A stretch of 64,000 nucleotides of DNA from Patescibacteria group bacterium (GTDB taxonomy: Bacteria > Patescibacteriota > Microgenomatia > UBA8517): assembly GCA_035260845.1 (NCBI GenBank), contig DATFUL010000001.1, positions 4,245-68,244 on the forward strand. Direction: 5' to 3'. Under the pieces are notes generated by a model that saw nothing but the letters and a program-made list of their open reading frames with translations, made no database searches and was not told the origin of the DNA. A program made the position numbers and the translations under genes. Numbering within the stretch: the stretch's first letter is position 1; each line of letters opens with the position of its first letter. Positions 17,597 to 20,500 of this stretch are shown here, piece by piece.

Positions 17597-20500
17597 GATC
17601 GCAAGAAATCGATCTATTAGTACAAGTAGCCTTAAATCCTTACGGATCTTCCAGCGCTTGCCTATTAACCAAGTATTCTTCTTGGGATCTGATAAGGAAT
17701 TCTAATCTCGGAGTATGCTTCCCACTTAGATGCTTTCAGCGGTTATCATTTGGGAATATAGCTACCCGGCGTTACAGCTGACGCTATAACCGGCACACCA
17801 GGGATTCCCCCAGGGAGGTCCTCTCGTACTGTCCCCAGCTCTCCTCAAAATTCCAACGCTTCTACAGGATAGAGTCCGACATAATTGTTTTAAATTACCT
17901 AAAATCTGCTCTTTTCATTAGGTAAACCTATAATCGCTTACAGGATCAGGCCATATCTTCGCTTTCGCGTTTGACGTATGGTCGTTGAGGGTTCCTCAAA
18001 AATTAATTCGAGATCTTCCCTGCTGATTGACTCCACTGATAGGATTGTTACCTTTCGGTACCTTCAGATACTGAGTTTTTCCAGCATATAGTCAAATTTA
18101 TTCTCAAACTGGTAGTTGAGATCTATACCAAAATAACAGAAATATACTAAACCTCTTCATGTTGATAATTATCAACAAGGATTCAAATCGTCCGTATAGA
18201 AAGACAGCTTAGAAATTGTCAGCATAATATGTAAATATGCTCAACTGTCTCACGACGTTCTGAACCCAGCTCGCGTATCACTTTAACGGGCGAACAGACC
18301 GACCCTTGGCACCTTCTTCAGCGCCAGGATGTGATGAGCCGACATCGAGGTAGCGAACCGCGCCGTCGCTATGGACGCTCGGGCGCGACTACTCTGTTAT
18401 CCCCGTGGTAGCTTTTATCCATTAAGCTCCGTGCACACCCATGGTGCATCGGAGGATCATTAAGACCTACTTTCGTACCTGCTTCACCTGTCGGTGTCGC
18501 AGTCAAGCTGGCTTAAACCTTTGCGCTTTAACCCACCGTTTCCATTGGTGGAAAGCCAACCTTTGTGTCCCTGCGTTACATTTTGGCAGGGTACCGCCCC
18601 AGTAAAACTGCCCGGCAAACACTTTTCCCAACGTCGTTTCCAGACGTCTAAAGTAAGCCTCACATTTTTCAACGAGTGGTATTACACTGTCCCCTTGCGG
18701 GTCCCACCTATTCTAGACAATCAAAAAATATGAAAGCAATGTCTACCTGCAGTAAAGCTCAACGGGGTCTTTTTGTCCATGTAGAAGTAGGCCGCGTCTT
18801 CACAGCCATCGCTATTTCGCCGAGTAAACCCTCAAGACAGTTATTAGCTCGTTACGCTATTCATGCGGGCCAGAACTTACCTGGCAAGGAACTTCGCTAC
18901 CTTAGAACAGTTATAGTTACTGCTGCCGTTCACCGGAGCTTAACTTTAGAGCAAAAATCTTGCGATCTCCACCCCTCCGCTTAACTTACCGGCACTGGAC
19001 AAGCGTCAGCCCGTATACGTCAATTTTCATTTTTGCACGGACCTGTGTTTTTGATAAACAGTCGACTAATAAACTTTAGTTGCAACCAATCATACTTGCG
19101 TATGTTGGCAACCCATCTCCCGAAGTTACGGGTAGATTTTTTGCCGAGTTCCTTGAGGATTTGTCTCTCGATCACCTTAGGGTGCTCCCCCAGTCCACCT
19201 GTGTCGGTTTGCGGTACGGCTTGTTTTGACTCTCACTGCGAACCTTTTCTCGCAAACTGAAAGTTTTGGAATCTCCCACCTCGCGGCGGAATTTGCATCA
19301 CTGCTTAATTAAAACGTTTCGGTAGATTTTCTAGTCGAAACTATCTTACAGCTTGCACCCTAATTCAATAAAGGGCTTCAGACTTCCAACTTGGTCAATC
19401 CCCAGTTGATAACGATTCAAAACAAATAGCAGAATTTTAACTGCTCTTCCATCGACTACGCCATATGGCCTCGCCTTAGGTACCGACTAACCCACTGAGA
19501 ACGAATCTTGCAGTGGAAACCTTGGACATTCGGTGCGCTAGATTCTCACTAGCATTGTGCGCTACTCAAGCCGACATTCTCACTACCAACCGCTCCACCA
19601 ATCCTTACAGATGTAGCTTCACTGCTGTTGGTACGCTCCCCTACCACTCCTCCTGAAATAAATTTCAGAAAAAATCTCTAGCTTCGGCATATAACTTAAT
19701 CCTCGATAAATCTTGGGCGCCACTCCTCAGTCGACCAGTGAGCTGTTACGCTATCTTTAAAAGGTGGCTGCTTCTGAGCCAACTTCCTGGCTGTCTGAGA
19801 GAAATGACTTCCTTTAAAACTTAGTTATAATTTAGAGGCCTTAGCTGAGAGTCATGGGTTGTTTCCCTTTCGTCGCATCAGCTTAGCCCGATGCGGCTGT
19901 CTAGTATGATAATTAACGTTAGTATTCGGAGTTTAATTGAGTTGAATTGCTTGCGCTCTCCAACCCATCTAGTGCTCTACAGCCAACATAACTTTACATA
20001 CCACGGTCCCTATAGACCTTTCGGGGAGAACCAGCTATCTCCAAGTTCGTTAGGTATATTGCCACTAACCACAAGTCATCCCATACAATTGCAACTGTAA
20101 CGGGTTCGGGCCTCCAGAGGATATTTCTATCTCCTTCACCCTGCTCATGGTTAGCTCACTTGGTTTCGGGTCTTTCGAATACTCCAAACGCGCTATTCAC
20201 ACTTGGTTTCCCTATGCCTCCTCCAGCAAAGCTGGATTAGACTAGAAGTATTCGAGAACTCGCCGGCTCATTCTTCAATAGGCACGCGATCATCCCGATA
20301 AATCAGGACTCTCACGGATTGTTCGCAAACAGTTTCAGGTACTATTTCATTGGGTGTCTCACCCGTCTTTTCACCTTTCCCTCACGGTACTAGTTCACTA
20401 TCGCTCTCTCATCTTATTTAGCCTTGGGGGATGGTTCCTCCAGATTCCCACAGAGTATGTGCTCCGCAGTACTTAGGAAATCCCTAGGGTAACATTCACT

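Follow-up and report, generated by a model that had tools for sequence, protein, structure and literature searches.

An ORF-less group I intron after position 2604 in the 23S rRNA gene of a Patescibacteria bacterium

In the 64-kb stretch of bacterial DNA analysed here (hereafter called the window), the 23S rRNA gene is interrupted by several hundred nucleotides of additional sequence. This arrangement raises the question of what kind of element the insert is, and of how a functional rRNA might be produced from a gene that carries it. The evidence presented below makes it very probable that the insert is an ORF-less group I intron belonging to a family named for its insertion point, the L2604 family, and that the 23S rRNA gene in which it resides is of the single-copy type and belongs to a Patescibacteria (CPR) bacterium.

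The host gene and the insertion point

The 23S rRNA gene that hosts the insert occupies positions 17596..20906 on the minus strand and matches the Rfam LSU_rRNA_bacteria model over positions 1-2925 with a score of 2278.9 bits. The gene is 3311 nt long with the insert and 2947 nt long without it, and an Rfam search of the 64-kb window returned full-length scores for each of the 16S, 23S, and 5S rRNA genes. With regard to the host organism, four proteins encoded in the window (HKB88026, HKB88031, HKB88034, and HKB88036) have exact matches at NCBI that are named 'Patescibacteria group bacterium', and the closest 23S rRNA gene among the loci compared comes from a Microgenomates metagenome-assembled genome (MAG). 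An independent soil assembly record at JGI contains the same contig, which matches at 100% identity over 3.5 kb. CPR genomes usually carry one rRNA operon (PMC11270868).

When read along the minus strand, the conserved sequence ...GAACGUCGUGAGACAGU is followed by the 364-nt insert and then by UCGGACUCUAUCC. The ends of the intron were set at window positions 18243 and 17880 by the rule that the 5' exon ends in U and the intron ends in G, which leaves ...GAGACAGU as the end of the 5' exon and UCGGACUC as the start of the 3' exon at position 17879. These ends coincide exactly with the insert at 17880-18243 in the original prediction, which had also correctly stated that the 5' exon terminates in U and the insert in G. 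The insert had been described as AT-rich and about 364 nt long, and its G+C content is indeed 34.9%, compared to 47.5% in the exons. Its insertion site consists of GAGACAGT upstream and TCGGACTC downstream.

Aligned with E. coli rrl by BLAST, the final 200 nt upstream of the insert place the insertion point after U2604, given that the 5' exon match ends at locus position 3384 and that rrl starts at position 781. The insert is located in helix 93, on its 3' strand, and A2602 of the peptidyl-transferase centre is two nucleotides away. This position requires one amendment to the original prediction, which had placed the insert exactly at the I-CreI / L2593 site and had described that site as one used by LAGLIDADG introns. 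Introns with LAGLIDADG genes do occupy the same site as the insert in other bacteria, but the site is at U2604, 11 nt downstream of the one named.

Position 2604 has been described as a recurrent site for group I introns and LAGLIDADG_1 genes in CPR 23S rRNA genes (Tsurumaki et al. 2024; PMC11270868), and by our reading of the numbering it corresponds to site '23IS13' of that study. Forms with an ORF and forms lacking one occur side by side at the sites reported there. The intron in the window is one more case of these documented CPR introns, with which it shares the host group, the E. coli position, and detection by the Rfam group I model. Nothing essential sets it apart from them, although it represents a subtype that carries a P1-loop hairpin and a P2/P2.1 region. 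The text of PMC11270868 gives no secondary structure for site 2604. In the literature searched, neither 'L2604' nor 'L2605' was found as an intron name, and the site appears as '2604' in PMC11270868.

Structure and covariation of the intron

The assignment of the insert as a putative group I intron is well supported. The search against Rfam Intron_gpI (RF00028) that had been proposed along with it yields a minus-strand match at 17927-18168, which covers model positions 1-253 of 253. Its score of 58.5 bits exceeds the gathering score, which is 50, and its E-value, calculated for the 64-kb window, is 2.9e-12. The same identity is evident from the U·G pair of P1, the terminal G, the core from P3 to P9, and the covariation among homologues. 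The original prediction had also called for a search for P1, P3, and P7, and all three are present, with a single A·C mismatch in P7.

All structural elements are on the minus strand and are described here in the order in which they would be transcribed. The 5' exon strand of P1, AGACAGU (18244..18250), ends with the 5' splice-site nucleotide U2604, which forms the U·G wobble pair. Its partner is the internal guide sequence GCUGUCU (18202..18208; intron nt 36-42), which serves as the 3' strand of P1, and the resulting 7-bp helix is formed in the minimum free energy (MFE) fold. Within the P1 loop is a hairpin, AGCAUA...UAUGCU (18221..18241; intron nt 3-23), which is indicated both by the MFE fold and by alignment with the intron of a Microgenomates relative (locus L073), and which is absent from the minimal relatives in the alignment. 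Intron nt 1-28 are identical in L073, even though the 23S rRNA genes are just 79% identical. The P2 domain (intron nt 44-122) and the P2.1 hairpin (nt 123-142) follow at 18102..18200. The P2 stem, UCUAUAC/GUAUAGA, encloses inner hairpins, and both P2 and P2.1 are proposed from comparison with the one relative L073; the MFE fold recovers P2.1 and folds the P2 region in a manner other than the proposed stem. Minimal relatives of 282-320 nt align without this P2/P2.1 insertion of ~100 nt.

The catalytic core begins with the 5' strand of P3, UUUGAC (18091..18096), which pairs with the 3' strand GUCAAA at 17970..17975. Between these strands is the P4-P6 domain (17989..18086), as defined by the alignment and by covariation in P4, P5, P5a, and P6. 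It comprises P4 (UGCUGG/UCAGCA), P5 (ACUC/GAGU) with a P5a-c extension, and P6/P6a (GGG...CCC), whose loop in the window is a short hairpin at the place where relatives carry a LAGLIDADG gene. The 5' strand of P7, AAC-GACCAUA (17977..17986), has a bulged nucleotide and also supplies the G to the G-binding G-C pair. P8 is a minimal 10-nt hairpin, CGC-GAAA-GCG (17960..17969), that is apparent from the sequence and the MFE fold; it directly follows the 3' strand of P3, with no P7.1 or P7.2 between the two, and is succeeded by the 3' strand of P7, UAUGGCCU (17948..17955). P9 and the P9.1 hairpin (17895..17944) are both formed in the MFE fold, and P9 (CCUGUAA-GCGA-UUAUAGG) is additionally supported by covariation and has a conserved GCGA tetraloop. 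The intron in the window lacks P9.2, which is an element of most relatives, and concludes with a 3' tail, UUUAAAACAAUUAUG (17880..17894), whose last nucleotide is the terminal omega-G.

The covariation evidence derives from an alignment of 33 complete introns at position 2604, found by a genome scan among the matches listed (the first 120). About two-thirds of the listed matches proved to be either chance matches within protein-coding DNA or point variants of 23S rRNA genes, and the window's own genome is absent among them. Considering P1, P3, P4, P5, P5a, P6, P7, and P9 together, 98.3% of the cells in the alignment are paired, compared to 29-39% in a control in which the partners were shifted by 1-3 columns. 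Compensatory changes are found in 29 of 48 pairs, and the observed values for pairing and compensation were reached in 0 of 500 shuffles.

The support is distributed among the helices in different ways. In P3, every cell is paired (100%) and five of the six pairs carry compensatory changes, whereas in P4, P5, P5a, and P6 the paired fraction is 96-100% and 15 of 20 pairs are compensatory. Six of the seven pairs of P9 likewise show compensatory changes. The U·G pair of P1 is present in all 33 introns; the six inner pairs of this helix are invariant and hence offer no covariation support. P7 was scored as a pseudoknot with P3, and its G-binding G-C pair is invariant. The outer P7 pair, beside the bulge, is G-C in 31 introns; the window has A-U and L073 has C-G. 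At the 3' end, each of the 33 homologues carries ...AACAnnAnUG, after which the exon begins with U(C/U)GG. In the window's own copy, changes in P3, P4, P5, P6, and P9 and in the outer pair of P7 are compensated, which points to ongoing selection on the fold.

Presumed splicing and alternative identities

The intron in the window is presumably removed by splicing, and the steps proposed for its removal are those generally followed by group I introns. The guide GCUGUCU would pair with AGACAGU of the exon in the precursor rRNA, giving P1, and the U2604·G wobble pair would set the 5' splice site. Folding of the P3-P8 and P4-P6 domains would create the catalytic core, in which free guanosine held at the G-C pair of P7 would attack the 5' splice site. 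G364 would then replace the guanosine, and the 3'-hydroxyl of U2604 would attack the 3' splice site. Joining of the exons would restore helix 93 beside A2602 in the peptidyl-transferase centre. The rRNA gene is intact in other respects, and an rRNA that kept the 364 nt within helix 93, which is part of the catalytic centre, would be hard to square with function.

Two features might weaken this pathway. The P7 pair that adjoins the G-binding pair is A-U in 31 introns and G·U in one, and the only non-standard combination among the 33 aligned introns is, by our reading of the sequence, that of the window, where A at 17982 is opposite C at 17950. This mismatch may be tolerated because a protonated A·C pair takes the shape of a wobble pair, with the same geometry. 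The second feature is P10. In relatives, the first bases of the intron (AGACC/GACCG) pair with the 3' exon (GGUCU/CGGUC), and inspection by eye suggests that the intron in the window can form at most 3 bp with its 3' exon UCGGACUC, making P10 weak. Many group I introns do without P10.

A metagenome scan for the ligated junction used the probe GAGACAGTTCGGACTCTATCC, which includes the lineage-specific U2609A. At least 120 contigs matched, and among those listed there is neither an intron-less allele nor a spliced transcript of the host species. The matches listed come from other, distantly related species with overall 23S identities of 72-83%, and the closest two (L196 and L214) are 98-99% identical over a conserved stretch of ~100 nt and 72-88% identical elsewhere. 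As a separate observation, the 23S sequences of many of the contigs listed break near positions 2500 and 2657.

If the mismatch beside the G-binding pair of P7 and the weak or absent P10 (judged by eye) were signs of decay, the insert could be a group I intron that has ceased to splice efficiently and would then be retained in the rRNA, reside in a non-functional rRNA copy, or depend entirely on a host protein. The absence of a maturase or endonuclease gene would fit such a state, and a precedent is suggested by the title of a paper on Simkania cited in PMC11270868, 'An unspliced group I intron in 23S rRNA...'. Nevertheless, decay appears very unlikely. All remaining pairs of the core are intact, and the compensated changes in the window's own copy argue for maintenance of the fold. 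The recurrence of the contig at full identity in the JGI soil record, the full-length scores of the three rRNA genes, and the single operon that is usual in CPR genomes (PMC11270868) likewise speak against a degenerate gene copy. Such CPR insertions were removed from transcripts according to Brown et al. (2015), as cited in PMC11270868.

Removal could in principle also be accomplished by a different route, since RNase III-processed intervening sequences are another form of extra sequence in 23S rRNA genes that is removed from the precursor. They exist in bacteria and probably also in CPR members (PMC11270868), and they are excised without ligation such that the 23S rRNA is left in fragments. 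However, they are described as short, not intron-like, and located where conservation is lower, at 23IS2 and 23IS4 (PMC11270868), and they occur within variable helices and are not ribozymes. The insert in the window passes the group I model and contains P1, the terminal G, and a complete, covarying core, and its MFE fold has no long end-to-end stem, the exon being paired to the guide sequence instead. An RNase III-type origin is therefore exceedingly improbable.

Just as hard to credit is a place for the insert in the I-CreI / L2593 lineage, which includes the Chlamydomonas chloroplast intron Cr.LSU with I-CreI and cyanobacterial introns of Synechococcus/Thermosynechococcus (Haugen et al. 2007; PMC1995217). 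The resemblance is real, in that both are group I introns that interrupt domain V of the 23S rRNA, are associated with single-motif LAGLIDADG enzymes, and have overlapping target sites. The insertion point is within the 22-bp I-CreI recognition stretch (roughly 2586-2607 by our own mapping), and LAGLIDADG enzymes are tied to both the 2593 and the 2604 sites. Yet the L2593 introns interrupt the gene between ACGU and CGUG, 11 nt upstream, and this stretch (ACGUCGUGAGACAGU) is unbroken in the window, which already refutes the position after U2593. L2593 introns are also described as having a short P5 together with P7.1 and P7.2 (Haugen et al. 2007; PMC1995217), whereas the L2604 family, including the window, has an extended P5 and lacks P7.1 and P7.2. 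In addition, I-CreI is not close to the L2604-family endonucleases. The best solved relatives of these enzymes are I-OnuI-type, I-PanMI, I-LtrI, I-Vdi141I, and I-CeuI, and I-CreI is absent from their top 60 PDB matches.

Other group I introns reside in bacterial 23S rRNA genes near the peptidyl-transferase centre, namely L1917 and L1951 of Coxiella burnetii and L1931 of Thermotoga and of Simkania. These introns differ from that of the window, by description, in both site and host. LAGLIDADG genes are tabulated by Haugen et al. (2007; PMC1995217) for L1931 of Thermotoga and L1951 of Coxiella.

Endonuclease genes, history, and spread of the family

As the original prediction had stated, the insert contains no substantial ORF: the longest one overlapping it in the ORF list is 37 aa, and no endonuclease or maturase gene was found there. 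In related introns that are 696-780 nt long, the P6 loop contains a LAGLIDADG_1 ORF (Pfam E = 1e-19 to 6e-25), and these genes are of the single-motif type. When the endonucleases of the family were compared with the ORF-less introns by tblastn, no gene remnant was detected in the P6 loop of the window, and matches were limited to the shared ribozyme core, which the endonuclease reading frames overlap. Without a homing endonuclease gene, the copy in the window is unable to home by itself. It most likely persists through vertical descent as a passenger that would be nearly neutral because it is spliced out, and the related copies with a single-motif LAGLIDADG gene in P6 would be able to spread.

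It is possible, albeit rather unlikely, that an endonuclease gene was never part of the sublineage to which the intron in the window belongs, whose spread would then have occurred in trans or through reverse splicing, with no gene loss involved. Among complete introns, the architecture with both the P1-loop hairpin and P2 is shared by the window, L073, L101, L074, L072, L061, L036, and L017, all of which are without a LAGLIDADG ORF, and among the matches listed the ORF-bearing introns all lack P2. The P6 loop of the window, with no trace of a gene, also agrees with this history. Conversely, L017 has a P6 insert of ~190 nt that could be a decayed gene, and the pattern was seen in a sample consisting of the first 120 scan matches listed. 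Degenerate ORFs are reported in PMC11270868, together with a scattered mixture, at the same sites, of introns that have an ORF and introns that do not, which fits a cycle of gain and loss.

Among the matches listed, introns of the L2604 family are present in MAGs assigned to Actinomycetota, Omnitrophota, Chloroflexota, Armatimonadota, Planctomycetota, Myxococcota, Dormibacterota, and Gammaproteobacteria. No report of the family outside CPR was found in the literature searched. Introns resembling that of the window occur in three MAGs labelled 'Gammaproteobacteria' (L061, L072, and L101), whose loci contain little 23S sequence. The 23S sequence of another locus, L109, is 85% identical to that of E. 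coli over 953 nt.

One tentative reading, which we consider unlikely, is that the copy in the window represents a distinct ORF-less sublineage that needs its added peripheral elements, within a family that extends well beyond CPR. If so, the P1-loop hairpin and the ~100-nt P2/P2.1 region might be needed for folding or splicing. They could conceivably brace the tertiary fold or be bound by a host protein, and in this way make up for the A·C mismatch in P7 and the weakness of P10.

The intron in the window carries little weight for general biology, because group I introns in CPR rRNA genes, including those at position 2604, have already been documented. Its practical consequences are more immediate: primers and probes that span positions 2590-2615, as well as rRNA gene callers, can be expected to have trouble with genomes that carry L2604 introns, because the intron splits a universally conserved stretch of 23S rRNA. 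The site should be recorded as L2604 rather than L2593. The alignment of 33 introns provides a covariation-backed secondary structure for the L2604 family, and the presence of this family in many non-CPR phyla bears on the movement of rRNA introns among distant bacteria.

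Identity and insertion site of the intron

The 23S rRNA gene of this bacterium (17596-20906, minus strand; full-length bacterial type by Rfam) is interrupted by a group I intron. In RNA sense, 364 nt separate the conserved GAACGUCGUGAGACAGU from UCGGACUCUAUCC. The junction with the exons leaves one U ambiguous, and the group I rule that the exon ends in U and the intron in G places the intron from 18243 down to 17880, exactly reproducing the coordinates of the original prediction. Its description of an AT-rich, ORF-less insert of about 364 nt between such ends also agrees with the sequence: G+C content is 34.9% in the insert versus 47.5% in the exons, no ORF of more than 37 aa overlaps it, and the gene minus the insert measures 2947 nt. 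The proposed group I identity is supported by a match to Rfam RF00028 at 17927-18168 (minus strand), which covers the entire model length at 58.5 bits, above the gathering score of 50, with an E-value of 2.9e-12 in the 64-kb window.

The insertion site, in contrast, had been misassigned. When the final 200 nt of the 5' exon were aligned to E. coli genomes, the match ended at locus position 3384 of a record with rrl at 781-3684, or 23S position 2604, and the intron is therefore designated L2604; in E. coli, this point is preceded by ...ttagaacgtc gtgagacagt and followed by tcggtcccta. The I-CreI/L2593 site (ACGU/CGUG), claimed as the exact insertion site, is uninterrupted in the window and lies 11 nt upstream. 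By our own mapping, position 2604 falls inside the 22-bp sequence recognised by I-CreI, and we place the insertion point two nucleotides from A2602, within the 3' strand of helix 93. The target, GAGACAGU followed by UCGGUCUC (flanks 18244-18251 and 17867-17879), is a near-palindrome about the insertion point, with GAGAC facing GUCUC plus a G/C pair at ±2; judging from the sequence, it might be a good target for a LAGLIDADG enzyme with a single motif that acts as a homodimer. The window and L073, the nearest 23S gene among the matches listed (a Microgenomates-group MAG), have A for U at E. coli position 2609 (U2609A; 3' exon UCGGACUC), which alters one half-site of the near-palindrome.

The surrounding rRNA genes do not form one compact operon, since five ORFs on the opposite strand (22266-27400, plus) part the 16S rRNA gene (27660-29128, minus) from the cluster of tRNA-Ile (22070-22144, minus; start 22070 or 22073), tRNA-Ala (21129-21201), 23S and 5S (17416-17532) genes. 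Rfam finds five tRNA genes in the window; these two identities are from ARAGORN. One of the five ORFs (23087-24403) matches type IV secretion coupling-protein domains (TrwB_AAD_bind, TraG-D_C, HerA/DUF87), and the other four match no family in Pfam or NCBIfam. The spacer between the two tRNA genes (21202-22069) is unusually long at 868 nt, has no Rfam match, and holds a sole ORF of 100 aa on the minus strand. Elsewhere, an ORF of 1371 aa (14-4129, plus) matches nothing in NCBIfam, and its one Pfam match, to an OspG-type kinase domain, falls below threshold (23.6 bits versus a cut-off of 27).

Relatives at the same site and their shared structure

One genome per prokaryotic species was scanned for CGTCGTGAGACAGT followed by anything except the normal TYG. 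This returned at least 120 rows, and about two-thirds of those listed are chance matches or point variants. Complete insertions at the L2604 site occur in at least 32 loci and span 282 to 780 nt. All 32 listed end in ...AACAnnAnUG followed by U(C/U)GG, and all 32 carry GCUGUC(U/C/G) soon after the 5' splice site. Loci with introns of this L2604 family (L004, L010, L016, L025-L027, L032, L051, L054, L058, L060, L062, L063, L069, L077, L078, L087, L090, L095, L100, L104, L107, L109 and L115) come from MAGs labelled as Actinomycetota (Acidimicrobiia, Solirubrobacterales, Gaiellaceae), Omnitrophota, Chloroflexi, Kofleriaceae, Dormibacteria, Planctomycetales, Armatimonadota and Gammaproteobacteria. 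Several of these non-CPR copies lie on contigs of 1-4 Mb, which makes mis-binning unlikely for them; literature searches found no report of the L2604 site outside the CPR.

An alignment of 33 introns (the window copy and 32 loci), extended by 12 and 10 nt into the exons, was used to draw P1, P3, P4, P5, P5a, P6, P7 and P9 on the window row, with P7 as a pseudoknot with an extra pair across a bulged nucleotide. Standard pairs fill 98.3% of 1567 cells, compared with 29-39% after a shift of the 3' partners by 1-3 columns, a control that is somewhat flattering because the structure was drawn from the same sequences; the counts of compensatory pairs are unaffected. Compensatory double changes are found in 29 of 48 pairs, and none of 500 shuffles reached any observed measure. 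Compensated variation is seen in five of the six P3 pairs, all seven of P5a and six of the seven of P9. P1 is invariant, as expected for a helix with one strand in rRNA, and so has no covariation support. The predicted fold of the window copy (-93.9 kcal/mol, z = -2.87) contains P1 with the exon, the P1-loop hairpin, P2.1, P5a, P7, P8, P9 and P9.1. The P1, P3 and P7 elements sought for a group I core are all present in the shared structure, and P1 and P7 also in this fold.

A reading frame containing a single LAGLIDADG motif is present in the relatives of 696-780 nt (e.g., L025:100-837 and L104:4123-4865); the two frames tested match Pfam LAGLIDADG_1 with E = 1.5e-19 and 5.8e-25. In the alignment, this gene occupies the P6 loop and its frame overlaps the ribozyme core at either end: GAC AAU CAG CAG GAA AGA of P5'/P4'/P6 encodes DNQQER, and P6'/J6-7/P7 encodes ESSETI or QNPQRL, so the same bases serve both RNA structure and protein. 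For one enzyme, the nearest solved structures are I-OnuI-family, I-PanMI, I-LtrI, 5gkk (a 170-aa single-domain protein) and I-Vdi141I; I-CeuI is a more distant relative, and I-CreI is absent from the best 60 matches.

Peculiarities of the window copy

In minimal relatives, the guide sequence that forms the intron 3' strand of P1 leads directly to J/P3 (GCUGUCU-AUAAAU-CUGGCU), whereas the window copy adds a P1-loop hairpin of 21 nt and, over some 100 nt, a P2/P2.1 domain whose pairing was compared with L073 only. Among the matches listed, seven loci (L073, L101, L074, L072, L061, L036 and L017) have extra sequence at the same two places, and all eight copies with both extras are ORF-less. In the window, P8 is cut down to CGC-GAAA-GCG and P9.2 is missing. 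The P7 pair beside the G-binding G-C pair is A·C (17982 and 17950), compared with A-U in 31 of the 32 listed relatives and G·U in one. By textbook geometry, protonation gives an A·C pair the wobble form of G·U, and for this reason the change, the sole blemish in the core, may be tolerated. In relatives, AGACC or GACCG at the start of the intron can form P10 with 3' exon GGUCU or CGGUC; no matching complement was found for the window's 3' exon, UCGGACUC.

Distribution, and probable splicing and inheritance

The host belongs to the Patescibacteria: four proteins of the window match NCBI entries of a 'Patescibacteria group bacterium' MAG exactly. An identical 3.5-kb stretch, intron included, is present in a JGI soil metagenome record. 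Compared with L073, the exons are 79-85% identical and the intron 68%, values that do not suggest recent transfer between the two lineages. Both introns nevertheless begin with the same 28 nt, which include the P1-loop hairpin (18216-18243 and L073:7457-7484; UGAGCAUAUUUACAUAUUAUGCUGACAA). An uninterrupted junction with U2609A occurs in at least 120 metagenome contigs, all from other species among the matches listed, so that some lineages in this part of the tree have the intron and others lack it. Exon alignments of metagenome loci L122-L241 (e.g., L196, L214, L130) and of L011, L012, L068 and L079 break at about 2500 and 2657 (E. coli numbering), which indicates other, putative insertions in related 23S genes. 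In the latter four, which carry an L2604 insertion, the 3' exon fails to align over its first 49 nt, and a further insertion some 50 nt downstream may be present.

Insertions were found in 82% of 348 CPR 23S genes surveyed (Tsurumaki et al. 2024; PMC11270868), and 45% of these insertions match the group I model. LAGLIDADG_1 genes are concentrated at 1917, 1931, 1952, 2593, 2604 and 2657, and ORF-bearing and ORF-less forms occur at the same sites, scattered across the host tree. The introns cluster around the peptidyl-transferase centre, and the authors call several of the sites new for bacteria. For the removal of such insertions from transcripts, they cite Brown et al. (2015). The window intron agrees with the CPR 2604 introns in host, site and type, and is a further example of a kind already described there; the original observation was real and mostly well interpreted, apart from the site.

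We infer that the intron splices because its core is intact and covarying, because it interrupts a region that the rRNA, whose gene is intact in other respects, cannot do without, and because of the CPR literature. The standard group I pathway is most likely: P1 would present U2604·G, guanosine bound in P7 would attack, the terminal G364 would dock next, and joining of the exons would restore helix 93. Without an endonuclease gene, this copy would be unable to home and is presumably inherited vertically.
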